A stretch of DNA of 64,000 nt. It comes from Spirochaetota bacterium. GTDB lineage: Bacteria > Spirochaetota > UBA4802 > UB4802. The notes beneath the pieces are model-generated. The model made no database searches and was not told the origin of the DNA. It saw only the letters and a program-made list of their open reading frames with translations. This document shows positions 3,170 through 52,457 of the stretch, in pieces (the first letter of the stretch is position 1; each line of letters begins with the position of its first letter). The translations under genes and the position numbers were made by a program. Location of the stretch: positions 3,448 through 67,447 of the forward strand of contig JARYLT010000003.1 in assembly GCA_029907515.1 (NCBI GenBank), in the 5' to 3' direction.

Positions 3170-3189
3170 TGTATTACTCCTTGCTGTAA

Positions 3190-3226
3190 AATAAAAAAGC
3201 CGTGGATTTGAACTAAACCCACGGCC
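3190..3226 (-). terminator. intrinsic terminator hairpin B, second of a tandem pair in the trp leader
   Basis: On the minus strand, GCCGTGG..CCACGGC forms a 7-8 bp stem followed by TTTTTTATTTT. It sits 15-20 nt upstream of the trpE SD. Confidence 0.5.
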
Positions 3227-3238
3227 TGATGCGTGTAC

Positions 3239-3275
3239 AAAAAAAGCCGTGGGTTTGATGTCCACCCACGGCTTT
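3239..3275 (-). terminator. attenuator terminator hairpin A of the trp leader
   Basis: On the minus strand, AGCCGTGGGT-GGACATCAA-ACCCACGGCT forms a 9-10 bp GC-rich stem followed by T7. Its left arm and loop contain GGTGGACATC, which is complementary to the end of the leader ORF. Confidence 0.6.
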
Positions 3276-3304
3276 GCCATTTTCATTTATACAATAATAG
3301 CCCT

Positions 3305-3635: not shown

Positions 3636-3941
3636 TTATCCACAGGATGAACCTGTATCAACCATAAAACCAGCACCATACGGTGTGTCCACAAAATCTA
3701 TGGTAATGTTGGTTCCAGCATCCATAAACCTTGCAATATCGCTGTCATACATTACGGGGATTTCGTTTGCAATTACTACTGTATCTTTTGTGTTTTCTGA
3801 CTCATCCAGAGCCAGTCCCAGACGGGGGCCGCCTCATCCAATACCGGCAAAAACAAGTCTTAATCCAGGCTGCTTAAATTCAACATCTTTGGCAGCTTCA
3901 ATAATTTTTTGTTTAGCTGAATCTGTAATAGTTATGTTCAT
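3636..3941 (-). CDS. HesB/IscA-like iron-sulfur cluster insertion protein with an in-frame UGA at the conserved Cys position (candidate selenoprotein)
   Basis: Minus-strand translation is MNITITDSAKQKIIEAAKDVEFKQPGLRLVFAGIG-[TGA]-GGPRLGLALDESENTKDTVVIANEIPVMYDSDIARFMDAGTNITIDFVDTPYGAGFMVDTGSSCG. The TGA at 3834-3836 is in frame and aligns with the Cys of the A-type carrier G-C-x-G motif. The C-terminal SSCG is retained. It is absent from the ORF track because of the TGA. Confidence 0.6.
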
Positions 3942-7776: not shown

Positions 7777-7799
7777 TGTTTGGAAGTTTATTTAATTTC

Positions 7800-8190
7800 T
7801 CATTTTGACACTGTACATGTATCCGTTGCTATTTTGACGTCGAACATTAATGCTTTGTCATTTTGTTGATTAATAATTATACAATGTCATTTCGGCAACG
7901 AACATGTCTACTTTGTCATTTCGACGAACTCAGTGAGGAGAAATCTTAATACAAATTTATACACATGGAGGGTAGCAATAGTAATAACAGCACCGTAATA
8001 GCAATCCCCAGATGAGCGTGGCAATCACAATGTGTGGCTGCCATCCTGAGTGAAGTAAATCATCGTGGGGAGTTCCGATTTTATCGGGACACCAAAGGAT
8101 ATTGTCGTTAATGGCTTAAAAGATTCTTCGTCCCGACTTCATCGGGACTTAGAATGATGGTATCTTTACGTCATTGCAAGTTCTAAAGCA
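7800..8190. repeat. intergenic repeat block: about 5 degenerate tandem units (period ~29 bp) of TGTCATTTCGACGAAC, then GTGAGGAGAAATCT and short GC hairpins (CCGATTTTATCGG, GTCCCGACTTCATCGGGAC)
   Basis: Unit starts near 7801, 7830, 7857, 7886 and 7915. The terminal copy GTCATTTCGACGAACTCAGTGAGGAGAAATCT recurs in inverted orientation at 17161-17200. Non-coding. Confidence 0.6.
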
Positions 8191-8274
8191 GCGGGGCAAT
8201 CTCATTAATTAGTATAAATGTATTATATCAATTAGTCTTATGATGAAATACATTATATTTTATAGGAGGGTATT

Positions 8275-9378
8275 ATGAAAAATAAATGTAATATTAACTC
8301 CTTAGCGCAGTCAGTTATTGTATGTGTCATGCTTGGCATGGGGTTTATGTCAAATTCTGCTTTTGCAGAATCCGTATTTTTGAAGGATGGAAGTATCATT
8401 GAAGGTGATATAGTCAAGGAGACCGATAAAGCTACGACAGTAAAGACAAGGGAAGGGAAGACCGTAACGATACAGCGGAAGGATATTTTGAGGACGCTGG
8501 TAAATGAAAGCTATAAGACACGGATGTATATTATGAAAAGTAACAAGGAGGTATTAGGGGTATACATTGTAGAAGAGGATAATGAGAGCTATACGTACAG
8601 GACAGAGTTGCAATCAGCGGAGGAATATAAGATAAATAAGGACGATGTATTATTTGTTTCAAAGATACCGCCCAAGGATTTTATAGATGAGGAGGTACAG
8701 AAGAAAGCAGCGGAATTAGGGATAAAGAAGAAGTATACACGGGAAGAGAACCTGAAATGGCGCGCACCGTTTATACGGGTGGCGTATTCAAATTATGTGC
8801 AATATGATGATGAACTGGAATATTTATTTCCAGAACCAGCGCCAGCTTTACTATTAGATATTTTTTTCTGGCGTTTTAGAGATGAAAAGGGTAATGGATT
8901 TGATATAATGGGAAGGTTACGTAATCATGGAAGAAAGGCTGATTTGAATGGTGGTGATCCAAGAACTTCAAAATATTCACAATTATATAATATAACAATA
9001 TCACCTACACTTCCATATAGTACTGATTTCTTTTTGAATTCAATCTCAGGAGGGTTACGATATGCATATGGGTGGTATGTTGGATATGTAATGGTACAGC
9101 CGTATATATTTGCATTATATCAATATGGGATGATTAATTCAATGATTTCTTATAATGATGGTGTAAGTGATAAAACAAAAGATATAAATATGAACACACA
9201 TGGTTATCAGGCGGGAGCAGGTGTTGATGTAGGGCTTTTTTCCTACTTTGGAATATTTATTGAAGTAAGCTACGGGTATGCAAAAGCCAAATTCGCTAAT
9301 GGTGAAGCTTATAATTTTGATGGCATTTCAGTATATTATGGAGTAAGCTGGTGCACATCGTTTGGTTTGATTGAGTGA
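8275..9378 (+). CDS. secreted hypothetical protein, paralog A (possible outer-membrane beta-barrel C-terminus)
   Basis: GGAGGG SD. Signal peptide with cleavage at SAFA-ES. Residues from about 30 to 167 are identical to the downstream paralog. The C-terminal half is rich in Tyr/Gly/aromatic alternation and ends ...GVSWCTSFGLIE. Confidence 0.8.
   Translation: MKNKCNINSLAQSVIVCVMLGMGFMSNSAFAESVFLKDGSIIEGDIVKETDKATTVKTREGKTVTIQRKDILRTLVNESYKTRMYIMKSNKEVLGVYIVEEDNESYTYRTELQSAEEYKINKDDVLFVSKIPPKDFIDEEVQKKAAELGIKKKYTREENLKWRAPFIRVAYSNYVQYDDELEYLFPEPAPALLLDIFFWRFRDEKGNGFDIMGRLRNHGRKADLNGGDPRTSKYSQLYNITISPTLPYSTDFFLNSISGGLRYAYGWYVGYVMVQPYIFALYQYGMINSMISYNDGVSDKTKDINMNTHGYQAGAGVDVGLFSYFGIFIEVSYGYAKAKFANGEAYNFDGISVYYGVSWCTSFGLIE
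8362..8773 (+). repeat. 412-bp segment identical to 9631-10042 (shared 5' coding module of the tandem paralogs)
   Basis: Base-for-base identity on direct comparison of the two stretches, with sharp divergence on both flanks. Confidence 0.85.
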
Positions 9379-9543
9379 ATTTGATTTAATTACTAATGAT
9401 TTTGTTTTGTATCTCTTAATAATTTTATATAAAGAATGGTCAGTTAAAAACAGTGATATGCATGCAGGGTATATAAAATAACTAATGAATAATAATAGCC
9501 TGGGACATTGAAATAGGTAGATAATTTGTATAGGAGAGCTTTC

Positions 9544-10647
9544 ATGAAGAAGATAGCAAGAGACTTTTTTTTAGCACACATACTTATAGTTAGTTGTGTT
9601 ATTGTATGGTTTATGTTTTCAGGGAATGTATTTGCAGAATCCGTATTTTTGAAGGATGGAAGTATCATTGAAGGTGATATAGTCAAGGAGACCGATAAAG
9701 CTACGACAGTAAAGACAAGGGAAGGGAAGACCGTAACGATACAGCGGAAGGATATTTTGAGGACGCTGGTAAATGAAAGCTATAAGACACGGATGTATAT
9801 TATGAAAAGTAACAAGGAGGTATTAGGGGTATACATTGTAGAAGAGGATAATGAGAGCTATACGTACAGGACAGAGTTGCAATCAGCGGAGGAATATAAG
9901 ATAAATAAGGACGATGTATTATTTGTTTCAAAGATACCGCCCAAGGATTTTATAGATGAGGAGGTACAGAAGAAAGCAGCGGAATTAGGGATAAAGAAGA
10001 AGTATACACGGGAAGAGAACCTGAAATGGCGCGCACCGTTTATGCGCTTTGGGTATTCAAACTTTGGAGTTTATATAGATTCTGATATTAATGATGCATA
10101 TTCCGAGAGCCGTAACATTAATGCTTTCATTGATATATTCCCCTGGCGGTTTAGAAATGAAAGTGGGAATGGATTTGATGCCATGATAAGAGCACGTTTT
10201 GTAGGCAATTTTGATGAAATTAATCCCACTGATCCAAGAACACAAACATTTTTAAAATTATATCAAGTTACTATAGACGAAAGCTATGAATCCAAACTCA
10301 ACATTGGTCAGATTTGTGGTGGAGTCAGATATGCCTACAGCATGTATTATGGTGTTTTGATACAACCCTATGTGTATGGATTATTGCAATTGTTTGTATT
10401 TCATGATGAAATAAAAATTGAATCTCTTAATTCAAATGCTATTGATGAACAGGTGTCATCGTCAAAATTGGGATACCAGTTTGGTGCAGGAGTTGATTTT
10501 GGAATAACCTCATACGTTGGTTTGTTTATTGAAGGAATGTATAGCTACATTGGCGCAAAATTTAAAGATGGAAAGACAAGAAATGTTGATGGTTACTATA
10601 TTTACTATGGAGTAACCTGGCGTACATCGTATGGTTTGATTGAGTGA
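9544..10647 (+). CDS. secreted hypothetical protein, paralog B
   Basis: ATG at 9544 has a TAGGAGAG SD; the ORF-track TTG start at 9526 is less likely. Signal peptide cleaved at NVFA-ES. The next ~137 aa are identical to paralog A, and the C-terminal half is diverged (ends GVTWRTSYGLIE). Confidence 0.8.
   Translation: MKKIARDFFLAHILIVSCVIVWFMFSGNVFAESVFLKDGSIIEGDIVKETDKATTVKTREGKTVTIQRKDILRTLVNESYKTRMYIMKSNKEVLGVYIVEEDNESYTYRTELQSAEEYKINKDDVLFVSKIPPKDFIDEEVQKKAAELGIKKKYTREENLKWRAPFMRFGYSNFGVYIDSDINDAYSESRNINAFIDIFPWRFRNESGNGFDAMIRARFVGNFDEINPTDPRTQTFLKLYQVTIDESYESKLNIGQICGGVRYAYSMYYGVLIQPYVYGLLQLFVFHDEIKIESLNSNAIDEQVSSSKLGYQFGAGVDFGITSYVGLFIEGMYSYIGAKFKDGKTRNVDGYYIYYGVTWRTSYGLIE
9631..10042 (+). 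repeat. second copy of the identical 412-bp module
   Basis: Identical to 8362-8773. Confidence 0.85.
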
Positions 10648-13239: not shown

Positions 13240-13728
13240 TTATTTGCACTGCATGGTTGCCAGTTTTTGCTGTAACCCCTTTTCGTATATCCGCACAACA
13301 GCAGTTTCACTGAAATCTTCATTATAATAGGTAACTACAATGACTTTATTATCAATACACTGTTTTAGTTGTTGTAGCAGGCATTGTTGGAAGCTATCGG
13401 TAACAGATATACCCTGTAATTGTGCGGTAACATTAATAAGGGTATCATAACATTGCTTTTCAAGTGATTGCATTAAATTAATATGTGCACTTTCTCTGGA
13501 TGCAACCAATCCTTCAATGCCAGGATCGGGTTTTGCGGTAATGATACACTGGTAACAGTTGTCGTTAAGAAAACCCTGGGTGGTAATATCATTACTTAAT
13601 GATTTAATGTATGATTGATTATGTGTGCATGATTGAAGGATTATCAAAAGCAAGAAAGCAATAATGGTAACAGTTTTAGGAACATTCATAAAAGGTGGTT
13701 GGACATTTGAAAATAAGCATTTAAGCAT
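13240..13728 (-). CDS. hypothetical lipoprotein
   Basis: Lipobox LLIILQSC after a hydrophobic h-region. Start uncertain (13728 or 13689). Confidence 0.5.
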   Translation of the reverse strand: MLKCLFSNVQPPFMNVPKTVTIIAFLLLIILQSCTHNQSYIKSLSNDITTQGFLNDNCYQCIITAKPDPGIEGLVASRESAHINLMQSLEKQCYDTLINVTAQLQGISVTDSFQQCLLQQLKQCIDNKVIVVTYYNEDFSETAVVRIYEKGLQQKLATMQCK

Positions 13729-13810
13729 TGGTTTACCATTAATATAGTATCATCAATATAATATACAAAAATATAACAAATCGTTATATGTCAAATAAAA
13801 AATGGTATTT

Positions 13811-16195
13811 TTACTGTTTCTTCAACATTGCAATAATATCGCGTATCTGGTCAGCTTTTGGGTGATTTGGCTTCATTGATAAAAGCTTTTCAAAATGATA
13901 GATAGCTTTTTCATTGTTTTTAAGCTTACGGTAATAGATCATGCCAAGCTCTTCATGTGCATCAGATAGTGAACTGTTTATCTGCAGTGAACGTTCAAAT
14001 TCTTTTACAGCCTGTTCAAAAACGCCCTTTTCCTTATAGGCAATACCTAAAAAGAAATGTGCCTGATCATTCATTGGTGAAAGATCAATAGCAGTTTTAT
14101 ATTCTTCAATAGCTTCATCATTCATGTTAGCAGATAAGTATGCATTTGCTAAGTTATAGTGAGCCTCAAAGGATTTGGGGTCATTAATAGTAGCCTGTTT
14201 GAATTGCTCTATGGCCTTGTCATGCAGTTTGTTCTTTTTATACAGGTTGCCTAAGTTGATGTAAGCTTTAGTATAGTTTGGGTTTTTAGTGATAGCTAAT
14301 GAATAATATTCAATTGCCTTATTATCATCACCAAGCCCCTCATATGCCTTACCTAATTCATACAGCGTTGGTGGATCATCATTCTTAATTGATAATGCTT
14401 TGGTGTAGAATGAAATAGCCTGTGCATAATTCTGCTTTGTGGCTGCAATAAGACCAAAGTTGAAAAGTGCCTGGAAGTATTCAGGGTCAGCTTCAAGTGT
14501 TTTGTTATAGAATGTTTCAGCGTTTGAATACGATTTCATTTCATGATAGGTTTCGGCTATCTTGAACAATGTGTCAGGATTATTGGGCCTTAATTCCCTG
14601 TCTTTGGTAAAATAATCAAGTGCCACCTTATAATTCTTCTGTTTAAGATAGATATCACCTAAATTAAAATATGCCCTATCTAAGTTTGGATCCTGTTCTA
14701 TAGATTGTTTTAAGTCTTTAATAGCTGCCTGCAGATTATTCATTTTATACTGTGCAAGGCCTCGTGCATAGTATGCCTTTGCAAATACGGGTTTTTCTTC
14801 TATGGCTTTTGTAAATTCATTAACTGCAGGGCTGTATTTACCTTCAGAATAATAGATAAGCCCTAAATGATAGTGGGAATCAGCATTTTTGGGGTTAGCA
14901 ATAATTGCATTCTGGAATGATTTTTTTGCTTCATCATCCATCTGGTTATGATAATAGATACGTCCCATCCAGTAATGCGAATGGTCGTCGGTTTTATCAA
15001 GCTGTGTTGCTTTGGCGTATGCCTTCAGCGCTTCATCGTATTTTTTTTCTGCACGATATTTATCGCCAAGTTCGCGCCATTTGAGTGCCGAATCATTGAC
15101 AGGATTTGCCGGTGTTGTTTGAGGTGTTGGTTCTGATAAATCTTTTGAATCTTTATCTCTGCTAATTACCTGTTGTGCTGAGGGTTCTGTTGTTTCTTTT
15201 GTTGCTACTGCAAGCTGTTGTGTATCAGACCCACCAATAATAGAAGGTTTTTGTAATTTTGAAAGGGCATGTGCATATTTGTTTTTTAGATTTTCGTCAT
15301 TACTGTTATAGCTTAAAGCCTGTTTGTAATAATCGGCTGCTTTAGCCCAGTTGCCCTGTGAAGCATAGATGTCGCCTAATCTCTCGGCAGATAATGCATC
15401 GCCAGGATCTTTTGACAGCGCTGTAGAATATGCACCAACAGCTTCAGGTATTTTATTCTGGGCAAGGTATGCATTGCCTAATGCACGGTAATATTTACCT
15501 GTGCCCGGTGAAAGAGTTATTGCTTTCTGGTATTGAGGGATAGCTTTAGCGTACTGCTTTTTATGCATATACAGATTGCCTAAGTTGTAGTATCCTTCGG
15601 GATCAGAAGGATTGGCTTTAATGCCTTTTTTCAGGATTTCTTCTGCACCTTTATAGTCACCTTTTTTCATTCGTTGTTGCGCTATGTTCCAGTAGCTTTC
15701 CTGATACTGGGGAGCAACGGCAATAGCGCTTTTATATTCTTTAAGGGCTTTGTCTAATTTTTCCTGTGTATCATATACATTTCCCAATTTATTATAGGCT
15801 TGGGGATATTTAGGGAAGTACTTTTTGGCAAGTTCCAGTGTTTTAATGGCATTTTCATAATCGCCTTTGAGGGCATAGGCATGTCCCAATTCGTTTAATG
15901 CATTGTAATTATCAGGTTGCAGTGCCAGTGCTTTTTTATAGTAGTCAATTGCTTTGTCCAGATTACCTGTTTCTTTATAAAGATTTCCTAATTTTATAAG
16001 GGTATCAACATCATTGGGATTTGTTTCCAGAATCTTTTCATATAATTCAATTTGCTTAAGCCGTATATCAACGATATCCTTTAGAGCATCCTTGGGTCGA
16101 GAAAGAAAATAATATCCGCCAAATAGCAGTAATAGTATTACTGCAACAACACCTGCAATTTTCAGATTGCGGTAACGGTCATAATAGTATGCCAT
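13811..16195 (-). CDS. tetratricopeptide-repeat protein with N-terminal membrane anchor
   Basis: 794 aa with an N-terminal TM (IAGVVAVILLLLFGGYYFL) and more than 15 TPR units (recurring AxxYxxLGxxY pattern). Confidence 0.85.
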   Translation of the reverse strand: MAYYYDRYRNLKIAGVVAVILLLLFGGYYFLSRPKDALKDIVDIRLKQIELYEKILETNPNDVDTLIKLGNLYKETGNLDKAIDYYKKALALQPDNYNALNELGHAYALKGDYENAIKTLELAKKYFPKYPQAYNKLGNVYDTQEKLDKALKEYKSAIAVAPQYQESYWNIAQQRMKKGDYKGAEEILKKGIKANPSDPEGYYNLGNLYMHKKQYAKAIPQYQKAITLSPGTGKYYRALGNAYLAQNKIPEAVGAYSTALSKDPGDALSAERLGDIYASQGNWAKAADYYKQALSYNSNDENLKNKYAHALSKLQKPSIIGGSDTQQLAVATKETTEPSAQQVISRDKDSKDLSEPTPQTTPANPVNDSALKWRELGDKYRAEKKYDEALKAYAKATQLDKTDDHSHYWMGRIYYHNQMDDEAKKSFQNAIIANPKNADSHYHLGLIYYSEGKYSPAVNEFTKAIEEKPVFAKAYYARGLAQYKMNNLQAAIKDLKQSIEQDPNLDRAYFNLGDIYLKQKNYKVALDYFTKDRELRPNNPDTLFKIAETYHEMKSYSNAETFYNKTLEADPEYFQALFNFGLIAATKQNYAQAISFYTKALSIKNDDPPTLYELGKAYEGLGDDNKAIEYYSLAITKNPNYTKAYINLGNLYKKNKLHDKAIEQFKQATINDPKSFEAHYNLANAYLSANMNDEAIEEYKTAIDLSPMNDQAHFFLGIAYKEKGVFEQAVKEFERSLQINSSLSDAHEELGMIYYRKLKNNEKAIYHFEKLLSMKPNHPKADQIRDIIAMLKKQ

Positions 16196-16223: not shown

Positions 16224-16937
16224 TTATAATTCATCGTCACGATAAATTTCTTCAAGCTTGTTCTTTGTCTTCTTTGTTTCGTGCCCGGCCTTTTTATCCT
16301 GTGCTTCACGCTGGACATCGTCAAGTATTATTCCACCTAAATGCAATGCTTCTTCAATGGATACATCGCTTCCTGGTGGTGGTAACACAAATTTTGGGTC
16401 TTTTAATAATTCAATAACCCTTTTTATTTTTTCATATTGAGGGTCTTCTGGAGCTATCGCCAAAAATTTTTCCCATGACTCAATGGTTCTTTCTTTATCT
16501 CTGAGCAGCATTAAATACGTCAGGCCAATATGGTAGTAAGCAAATTTAAGCTGTGGATTAAGGCTGAATGCTTTTTTAAAATATGCAAGTGCTTCTTCCG
16601 GCTGCTTTTTATAATAATATACCTGTCCTATTCTGAATGCATCTTCGGCGCTTTTTGGATTCAATTCCAGAGCTTTAATATACAGCTGCAATGCACCGTC
16701 ATAGCGTTTTTTATATAAAAAAATATCACCCAGGTATGAATACGCCATGGCATTTTCAGGATTGTTTTTCAACTCTTCCTGAAATAAGAGTTCGGCTATC
16801 TCAAATTTTTGCTGATAGAAATATTTAACACCCTTTTTAAAAGGGGTATCATCATCCTTTTTTGCAGCAAAGGATATGGTATATGCGATAGTTACTGATA
16901 AAAGGGTTATCAGACAAAATAAAACTATTTTCTTCAT
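16224..16937 (-). CDS. TPR-repeat protein with signal peptide
   Basis: Start at MKKIVLFCLITLLSV (GGAAA SD). Contains TPR units (AYSYLGDIFLYKK.., AYYHIGLTYL). The ORF-track extension to 17075 lies in the repeat/promoter region and is rejected. Confidence 0.7.
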   Translation of the reverse strand: MKKIVLFCLITLLSVTIAYTISFAAKKDDDTPFKKGVKYFYQQKFEIAELLFQEELKNNPENAMAYSYLGDIFLYKKRYDGALQLYIKALELNPKSAEDAFRIGQVYYYKKQPEEALAYFKKAFSLNPQLKFAYYHIGLTYLMLLRDKERTIESWEKFLAIAPEDPQYEKIKRVIELLKDPKFVLPPPGSDVSIEEALHLGGIILDDVQREAQDKKAGHETKKTKNKLEEIYRDDEL

Positions 16938-17120
16938 AGAAGTATTTCCAGTATTATTATCGGTTATATGACGATAACAGAATACATAAAAACAGTATAC
17001 GAACATCAGCATGTAAAAACTGTAACAAAAAAGAACAGCATCATTGTACAAAAAGCTACTATAAACCGTTTCCACTCAAAATTCATGTAGACCTCCATTG
17101 AAAATAATATTTATTCTCTA

Positions 17121-17290
17121 TGTCATTTCGAATCCCGATTTTATCGGGATGCTGTTGTAAAATAAGATTTCTCCTCACTGCGTTCGTCGAAATGACAGTA
17201 TGAAAACATTCGTCGAAATGACAGTATAAAAACATTCGTCAAAATGACAGTGTGAAAATGTTCGTCGAAATGACAACGTATAAAACATTA
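17121..17290. repeat. second locus of the same repeat family: hairpin ATCCCGATTTTATCGGGAT, then AGATTTCTCCTCACTGCGTTCGTCGAAATGAC, then 4 tandem ~27-bp units (CGTCGAAATGACAGTATAAAAACATT)
   Basis: Reverse complement of the motif at 7912-7952. Unit starts near 17176, 17201, 17228 and 17255. Confidence 0.6.
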
Positions 17291-52294: not shown

Positions 52295-52367
52295 GGCGCC
52301 GTACCCAAGTGGCTAAGGGAGAGGTCTGCAAAACCTTTATGCAGCGGTTCGAATCCGCTCGGCGCCT
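52295..52367 (+). tRNA. tRNA-Cys (GCA)
   Basis: Cloverleaf read by hand: acceptor GGCGCCG/CGGCGCC, anticodon loop CUGCAAA, T-arm AGCGG-TTCGAAT-CCGCT. Confidence 0.85.
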
Positions 52368-52371
52368 ATAT

Positions 52372-52457
52372 GCCCAAGTGGTGGAACAGGTAGACACAAG
52401 GGACTTAAAATCCCTTGGACTTTCAAGTCCGTGCCGGTTCAAGTCCGGCCTTGGGCA
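52372..52457 (+). tRNA. tRNA-Leu (TAA), type II with long variable arm
   Basis: Acceptor GCCCAAG/CTTGGGC, anticodon loop CUUAAAA, variable arm GGACTTTCAAGTCC, T-arm GCCGG-TTCAAGT-CCGGC. Confidence 0.85.

Follow-up and report, generated by a model that had tools for sequence, protein, structure and literature searches.

Two intergenic repeat clusters in an uncultured Spirochaetota genome belong to a widespread family of small DNA hairpin elements, probably of the SRM/NTS/dRS3 kind

Clusters of a short hairpin repeat are found at two intergenic loci in a 64,000-nucleotide stretch of DNA from an uncultured Spirochaetota bacterium (assembly GCA_029907515.1, contig JARYLT010000003.1, positions 3,448 to 67,447; 37.5% G+C), referred to here as the window. 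Each cluster is built around one full 32-nt element, GTCATTTCGACGAAC[T/G]CAGTGAGGAGAAATCT, which lies at 7915-7946 on the plus strand in locus 1 (GTCATTTCGACGAACTCAGTGAGGAGAAATCT) and at 17165-17196 on the minus strand in locus 2 (GTCATTTCGACGAACGCAGTGAGGAGAAATCT); tandem copies of its 5' half (3-4) stand on the 5' side of the full element and further hairpin elements after it. Both loci are upstream of, and co-oriented with, genes. Locus 1 precedes the gene for a signal-peptide protein, some homologues of which carry an OMP beta-barrel domain, and locus 2 precedes a small open reading frame (ORF) and a TPR operon, in agreement with a first-pass annotation, made from the sequence alone, which had placed the loci upstream of secreted or TPR protein genes. 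That annotation had also reported that the repeat of locus 1 recurs inverted at locus 2, and the recurrence holds: 7914-7948 and 17163-17197 form an inverted match of 35 nt that is 97% complementary, the sole difference being a T or a G in the loop. The coordinates given earlier (7915-7947 and 17161-17200) were right in position and slightly too wide in extent.

The 15-nt core GTCATTTCGACGAAC, allowing up to two mismatches, has five matches in the window against 0.09 expected, all within the two loci. A covariance model (R1), built from 30 distinct 32-nt family members, gave significant scores (E about 1e-12) in a scan of the 64 kb only at the two full elements, with 50.7 bits (E 5e-12) at locus 1 and 53.6 bits (E 8e-13) at locus 2. 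A looser pattern, TCAT-www...w'w'w'-ATC, had 19 window matches against 15 in shuffles, which is chance level, and the pattern was tightened.

The full element consists of an unpaired TGTC tag, a 5-bp stem (ATTTC/GAAAT), a tandem G.A/A.G mismatch, and an inner helix (C-GA-AC / GT-GA-G) which holds a second tandem G.A and closes on a 3-nt loop (TCA in 7915-7946); an unpaired CT(T) tail follows. Elements with a 5-bp stem starting with AT, tandem G.A mismatches and a covarying inner helix are termed here the GA-type sub-family, whose 32-mer form is ACTGTCATTTCGACGAACGCAGTGAGGAGAAATCTTAT. The hairpin is supported by covariation among 30 distinct 32-mers of many sources, in which the inner pairs were not imposed by the search. 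The pair 11-23 is GC in 13 sequences, CG in 10, AU in six and GU in one, with none unpaired, and pairs 14-20 and 15-19 each occur as four pair types. Altogether 96% of cells pair, compared with 81% in shuffles (0/500 as good) and 17-58% with a slid partner.

A scan for near-exact copies of the 31-mer, covering one genome per GTDB species, revealed 49 loci (L054-L102) in other genomes and metagenome-assembled genomes (MAGs), and in most of them the copies are identical to the first 31 nt of the 17165-17196(-) element (GTCATTTCGACGAACGCAGTGAGGAGAAATC). Homologous repeats are thereby found in eight other phyla, namely the Bacteroidota, Chloroflexota, Desulfobacterota, Hydrogenedentota, Caldisericota, Elusimicrobiota, Bdellovibrionota and Planctomycetota. 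Three MAGs have many copies, those of Anaerolinea (11 loci), Desulfatirhabdium (14) and a member of the Hydrogenedentota (9); the other hosts are Flavobacteriales, Bacteroidales, Lentimicrobiaceae, Flavipsychrobacter, Caldisericum, Elusimicrobiales, Bacteriovoracaceae, Planctomycetia and Smithella. The description of the repeat as a dispersed intergenic family is borne out, with 46 of 56 exact copies outside ATG-initiated ORFs of at least 120 aa, though those ORFs cover 81% of the DNA. The two clusters in the window are thus real copies of a widespread small DNA hairpin repeat family.

The common architecture at these 49 loci is a run of 5' half-units, a full element, a spacer of 10-25 nt and a reverse partner element, often with reverse 5' half-units beyond it. 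Among neighbouring elements, convergent pairs (3' ends facing, median spacer 22-25 nt) rank first or share first place in the genome loci and in the loci with GIY-YIG genes described below; in the viral contigs tandem pairs predominate. In IMG/VR, a scan for GTCATTTCGA-N(8-25)-GAGAAATCT gave 53 loci, the interiors of which are short covarying helices or inserted hairpins. The exact 31-mer had 0 matches in IMG/VR and in the PLSDB plasmids, and a phage or plasmid vector for the identical 31-mer was rejected on these searches. The identity over 31 nt extends across the eight phyla and the Spirochaetota, yet the GIY-YIG proteins encoded beside it share only ~56% identity, which may reflect either a very strict constraint or recent transfer. 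Two IMG/VR contigs (L020, at 13585-14025, and L037) contain a 39-nt element, GTCATTTCGAGTAAGTGCGCAGCACGCATCGAGAAATCT, 5-7 times each, with three at an exact spacing of 201 nt, which suggests that the element is part of a longer tandem repeat.

At three of the 49 loci, from three phyla (L071, L074 and L083), the exact window 31-mer adjoins a gene for a 97-100-aa protein consisting only of a GIY-YIG domain (PF01541, E 1e-16 to 2e-17). In L074 the gene lies between the exact 31-mer in forward orientation and a reverse element. There, at 3871-3905(-), the 31-mer abuts the TTG start codon and a GAGGAG within the element is 7 nt upstream; to judge by this arrangement, the element may be the source of the ribosome-binding site of the nuclease gene. 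The association was then approached from the other side, with an alignment of the three GIY-YIG proteins that led to 80 metagenome loci encoding single-domain proteins of ~97 aa. Family elements are present within 300 nt of the gene in 70 of the 80, and the density of elements is 4.9/kb near the gene and 0.23/kb at more than 500 nt, a 22-fold enrichment. Flanking sequence was sufficient at 67 loci: a forward element stands no more than 150 nt upstream of the gene in 44 of them, a reverse element no more than 150 nt downstream in 40, and in 34 the gene has both. Enzyme and motif type also co-vary: the nearest-neighbour protein has the same flanking element type (GA-type or perfect-stem) in 54 of 61 cases, compared with 38 expected. 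The core motif had been likened to the widespread GTCATTCCGAGCGAAGCGAGGAATCT-type short repeat, and such elements (GTCATTCCGAGCGAAGTGAGGAATCC, GTCATTCCGAACGAAGTGAGGAATCT) do belong to the same family and occur beside the same GIY-YIG genes.

A protein of this size and make-up has been characterised in Neisseria meningitidis, where SsnA is a 94-aa single-domain GIY-YIG protein (cd10448) that recognises the NTS motif CGTCATTCCCGCGMAVGCGGGAATCYRG in single-stranded DNA (ssDNA) alone, does not bind double-stranded DNA (dsDNA), RNA or the reverse strand, and cuts a few nucleotides upstream of the motif (Chenal et al., Nat Commun 2025, PMC11893778). One homologue in our set (L139, 56% identical to the query) has on both flanks TGTCATTCCCGCGAAAGCGGGAATCCAG, which agrees with the Neisseria NTS consensus at 27 of 28 positions. 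The protein set is therefore tied to the Ssn family, by way of these flanks rather than by direct alignment with the Neisseria protein. The family is large, with 7,999 of 8,000 scored candidates at E <= 1e-10, mostly of 96-100 aa and annotated as 'GIY-YIG nuclease family protein' or 'putative endonuclease'. A search of the PDB with the GIY-YIG proteins gave only distant UPF0213 structures (1ZG2 and 1YWL), and NCBIfam had no specific model for them.

Tandem 5' half-motifs are a polar feature of the family. Of 145 full elements at the genome loci, 34 have them directly upstream, as do 32 of 244 at the GIY-YIG loci; orphan half-motifs downstream number 0 and 2, respectively, giving 66 upstream against 2 downstream in total. 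The arrays have periods of 17-30 nt and up to four units, and are also found with perfect-stem types (L162). Every half-unit retains the tag and the outer stem's 5' strand, and in every one the 3' strand with its C is missing. Nested insertion into the loops of older elements was considered as their origin and rejected, the expected orphan 3' halves not being seen; the half-units beyond dimers are reverse-complemented 5' halves with a GAC tag.

In the window, the presence of tandem units at both loci had been recognised earlier, but their number and period (4-5 copies of ~27-29 bp) have to be corrected. At locus 2, TRF reports an array of 26 bp x 4.1 (17183-17289, 84% matches). On the minus strand, a direct reading of 17197-17286 gives three 26-nt 5' half-units, GTCATTT[C/T]GACGAA[C/T] followed by an 11-nt A/T-rich spacer, at 17274 to 17249, 17248 to 17223 and 17222 to 17197, which lead into the full element; an additional spacer-like copy is at 17275-17286. 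A CRISPR array was rejected for this region, as the period is 26 nt and the 11-nt 'spacers' are near-identical (ATTTTCACACT, GTTTTTATACT and GTTTTCATACT). Locus 1 has two clear half-units on the plus strand with a period of 29 (7857-7914: 7857-7885, GTCATTTTGTTGA..., and 7886-7914, GTCATTTCGGCAACGAAC...), by direct reading and the half-unit count. They are preceded by two degenerate ones (7799-7856(+): ~7799-7829, CTCATTTTGAC..., and 7830-7856, TATTTTGACGTCGAAC...), which were read directly, have a period of 27-31 nt and are in register with the clearer units downstream.

The other elements at the two loci are more diverged. At locus 1, the plus strand at 8040-8102 has a degenerate family-like element with a GCC tag and an ATCCT/AGGAT stem, the loop of which holds a CCGAT-TTT-ATCGG hairpin (8072-8090). 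It folds as an outer stem and an inner 8-bp hairpin (-7.0 kcal/mol, z -0.66), which alone is not significant, and its membership of the family is tentative. A reverse-oriented element, ATCATTCTAA-GTCCCGATGAAGTCGGGAC-GAAGAATCT, is at 8121-8158(-), with an ATTCT/AGAAT stem and a 7-bp GC hairpin insert (GTCCCGA-CTTCA-TCGGGAC, 8130-8148); its DNA fold reaches -9.9 kcal/mol (z -3.9, 0/200 shuffles as good). It is followed at 8170-8203(+) by an element GTCATTGCAAG...GGGGCAATCTC (also written GTCATTGC...GCAATCTC) with an ATTGC/GCAAT stem. The R1 scores of the last two are at noise level (E 1.2 and 0.48, respectively); the module type of 8121-8158 matches elements of the IMG/VR and GIY-YIG loci. At locus 2, a truncated element on the plus strand at 17122-17150 comprises GTCATTTCGA and the hairpin ATCCCGAT-TTT-ATCGGGAT (17132-17150), with no 3' stem half. 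It faces the full element at 17165-17196(-) across a 14-nt spacer, and the two together form a single long hairpin (-17.1 kcal/mol, z -5.6). GC hairpins had been noted before at both loci and are present, with a 3-nt TTT loop and not TTTT; these CCCGAT hairpins appear to be loop inserts of further family members and not features of their own.

Comparison with relatives reveals turnover of the spacer segments that hold the clusters, the behaviour expected of mobile or REP-like DNA: at the same spacers, syntenic relatives have no elements or different ones. The gene downstream of locus 1 has its homologues in MAGs named 'Spirochaetes bacterium' or 'Spirochaetota bacterium', one partial protein being 100% identical; the genome resembles that of an uncultured member of the Spirochaetota and not one of the Bacteroidetes or Chlorobi. 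In GCA_026414805.1 (L185) the gene order is Lon, FecR, spacer, homologue ... TPR, TPR, spacer, DHH; neither orthologous spacer has any elements, and the promoter-like boxes and the small ORF are conserved. The locus-1 spacer of GCA_040756435.1 (L184) is occupied by TGC-stem elements arranged as three convergent dimers, and a further three elements lie between the paralogues. The L184 dimers (78-421 and 1720-1903) share a conserved 16-nt spacer, AAGGTAGTAAACGACG, and one of them carries in its middle part a loop insert of 46 nt. A JGI contig of a 78%-identical relative (L183) starts inside the equivalent of the last locus-1 element (8170-8203).

Several features of the window were observed in passing. 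The tandem paralogues downstream of locus 1 (8275-9378 and 9526-10647), putative outer-membrane proteins, are about 62% identical overall by comparison of homologues, and a 413-nt stretch (8362-8774 and 9631-10043) is 100% identical between them, which suggests recent gene conversion. The small ORF at 17006-17086(-), 36 nt from the locus-2 cluster, encodes a hydrophobic peptide of 26 aa, MNFEWKRFIVAFCTMMLFFFVTVFTC, has a GGAGG ribosome-binding site and is conserved in L185 (MDFEWKRFIVAFLAMMAFFFTTVFIC); gene-calling tools missed it. The GTG start at 17075 of the ORF at 16224-17075(-) is probably over-extended, and the ATG at 16938, which would give a TPR protein of ~238 aa, is preferred because of the gene call in the relative and sequence conservation. 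Two adjacent GC-rich hairpins at 3188-3283 (AAAAGCCGTGGGTTT... / ...ACCCACGGCTTT), forming a 38-nt imperfect inverted repeat, look like a bidirectional terminator and are unrelated to the repeat family. Two adjacent tRNA genes at 52295-52457(+) are the only Rfam matches in the window.

Taken together, these observations make it probable that the two loci are clusters of REP-like ssDNA hairpin repeats of the SRM/NTS/dRS3 ('CGTC/TGTC-tagged REP') kind, which are non-autonomous and partnered by an Ssn enzyme. Repeats of this kind have already been described; the GA sub-type and the tandem half-copies have not. The first-pass annotation named no function, and the link to the Ssn nucleases would supply one. 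The copies in the window are most likely non-autonomous members of a population of elements in this genome; in other genomes such elements also occur as gene-less convergent dimers across intergenic DNA. They would occupy the fast-turnover spacer segments between conserved promoter and gene sequences and, when exposed as ssDNA during replication, repair or uptake, would be open to cutting by an Ssn enzyme whose gene lies elsewhere; an ssn gene is presumably present in the source genome. ssDNA-specific binding and cutting are taken from the literature, where they have been demonstrated for NTS-type motifs only. In the known systems the cut is made in one strand, in ssDNA only, a few nucleotides 5' of the tag, and GA-type elements would be cut likewise. 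The half-units are probably by-products of nicking, repair or slippage at the 5' edge of the element, although this is a guess, and they could alternatively pair with the single 3' half.

Several results weigh against this interpretation. The 64-kb window has no GIY-YIG gene, and the R1 scan found only two strong copies of the element in it. Cleavage by Ssn has been shown for four proteobacterial enzymes only, with perfect-stem motifs (PMC11893778). The published search string for Ssn-related motifs (SRM), HGTCWYN(0-2)YYVSBRHN(0-5)WNVSBRGN(0-2)RNCYNB, an operational tool derived from 29 genomes (PMC11893778), has 0 matches in the window and recovers none of the five window elements; near GIY-YIG genes it matches none of the 185 GA-type and 11 of the 59 perfect-stem elements. 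Nearest-neighbour DNA folding of the 32-mer alone gives no stable hairpin (-1.0 to -1.7 kcal/mol, no better than shuffles). The energy model gives no credit to G.A pairs, which it treats as an internal loop, and for this reason the hairpin rests on covariation; as a test of structure, thermodynamic folding of the 32-mer was set aside as uninformative.

The elements might instead act mainly as RNA, in 5' leaders where hairpins and arrays modulate transcription, mRNA stability or translation. Such effects are known at the RNA level for REPs (PMC3733652), and covariation does not distinguish RNA from ssDNA; moreover, at both loci the full element points the same way as the gene downstream of it, and a conserved TTGACA (minus strand, 17351) lies upstream of the locus-2 array, which may be in the leader. 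We nevertheless hold this to be unlikely. With Rfam 15, neither locus gave anything at gathering score, and there was only noise at E up to 10; an intrinsic terminator (GC hairpin and T-run) was likewise rejected, with 0 terminator-like sites in either locus. Both orientations, and convergent dimers, are represented in the family; in L185 the genes and promoter-like boxes are the same although no element is present; and Ssn does not bind RNA (PMC11893778). The regular spacing (26-29 bp) of a conserved 14-15-nt core in spacers that contain promoters would also suit dsDNA binding sites, iteron- or operator-like, for a regulator or initiator at the adjacent promoters. That the core is part of a hairpin element with covarying stems, that it occurs in many phyla beside unrelated genes while syntenic relatives lack the arrays, and that the arrays are strictly polar to the full element leave this reading very improbable.

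It is also quite unlikely that the repeats are REP- or MITE-like elements moved by another enzyme, such as a RAYT or IS transposase, with an incidental link to GIY-YIG genes, or dead relics without a partner enzyme. No dedicated transposase has been found for the CGTC-tagged REPs (PMC3733652), and ~19% of SRM-rich genomes are without ssnA (PMC11893778), which, with the absence of an ssn gene from the window, would fit such an origin. The 22-fold enrichment around GIY-YIG genes in inverted-pair geometry and the co-variation of enzyme and motif type argue against it; no transposase-like gene was seen beside the elements in the loci inspected in detail, the remaining loci not having been checked systematically. 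Chance similarity or a segmental duplication of the two loci, which the presence of only two strong copies in 64 kb might suggest, has a negligible probability given the excess of core matches and the identical copies in eight other phyla. The idea of an ordinary duplicated segment, raised in the first-pass annotation as what would undo the repeat family, fails at the borders of the element, where the likeness stops, the flanks of the two loci being unrelated.

If the repeats are Ssn-partnered hairpin elements, a motif that is common in environmental genomes and often mis-called as tiny ORFs would gain an identity as a target of Ssn-type ssDNA nucleases. The published SRM string misses what is apparently the dominant sub-type near GIY-YIG genes (185 of 244 elements in the loci examined), and the prevalence of SRM/Ssn systems is therefore probably underestimated. 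A bolder proposal, which we regard as possible but doubtful, is that the 5' half-motif arrays (tag, 5' stem strand and about 10-15 nt) are a family-wide signature of Ssn-type processing, and that the GA-type is a separate Ssn specificity class, conserved at the nucleotide level across at least nine phyla. The arrays could be footprints of nick-initiated repair or strand displacement which starts at the Ssn cut site and stalls in the hairpin, and would then be the first sequence-level clue to how SRMs multiply. They could also be functional 'hemi-sites', each pairing with the one 3' half available, so that a ladder of alternative ssDNA cleavage positions results, a reading consistent with the published cutting of split and loop-extended NTS substrates. 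Ssn enzymes have been proposed as programmable ssDNA cutters, and the half-motif arrays and the nucleotide-perfect conservation across phyla offer handles on spread and enzyme specificity that are relevant to this use.

The family can be compared with three known systems. The REP and REPIN-RAYT systems, reportedly the work of Nunvar (2010) and of Bertels and Rainey (2011), appear alike in their working, with short hairpins, inverted doublets with a short spacer, a flanked small nuclease gene and BIME-like clusters. They have a GTAG tag and an HUH Y1 transposase, whereas the window family has a TGTC tag and a PF01541 GIY-YIG protein, and there is no sequence relationship between them. Closer in sequence are the CGTC-tagged REPs, a group comprising dRS3, Rickettsia RPE-4/6 and others, with a CGTC/TGTC tag, an AT-start stem, a 3-nt tail, dimers and no known transposase, which have been reported in Spirochaetes, Bacteroidetes and Chlorobi (Di Nocera, De Gregorio & Rocco, BMC Genomics 2013, PMC3733652). 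The elements described here share the unpaired CGTC/TGTC tag, the AT-start stem, the short unpaired 3' tail, the mostly inverted dimers and the intergenic location. The continuous 8-9-bp stem, 4-5-nt loop and CCA tail of the CGTC-tagged REPs are not found in the window elements, which have a 5-bp outer stem, tandem G.A, an inner helix of 1+2 bp, a 3-nt or long loop and a CTT/CTC tail. Literal strings of the element sequences had no match in the literature text searched.

The SRM/NTS elements differ from the window type in their perfect 8-bp stem, where the latter has 5 bp, GA and an inner helix, and the polar tandem 5' half-motif arrays and the Spirochaetota host are unlike what has been published for them; no description of natural half-motif arrays is given in the main text of Chenal et al. 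2025 (PMC11893778), where the word 'tandem' does not occur. In other respects the two are alike. Both are oriented hairpins in which an AT-start palindrome has a (C/T)GTC tag on its 5' side and a C directly on its 3' side, and both are intergenic, multi-copy and clustered; the two window copies read TGTC-ATTTC...GAAAT-C, and a T precedes GTC in 212 of the 244 family elements, in which the C after the 3' stem is set by the construction of the search. In Neisseria, where the system limits transformation with DNA that carries an NTS, cutting is influenced by the three bases that precede the palindrome and binding by the C that follows it, and loop-extended and split half-motifs remain cut by SsnA (PMC11893778); loop insertions are tolerated in the present family also. 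Finally, the architecture is NTS-ssnA-NTS, with an SRM near 71% of homologues (PMC11893778), and both families form inverted pairs around GIY-YIG genes of ~95-100 aa, with elements on both sides in 51% of the loci here compared with 42% in the published set.

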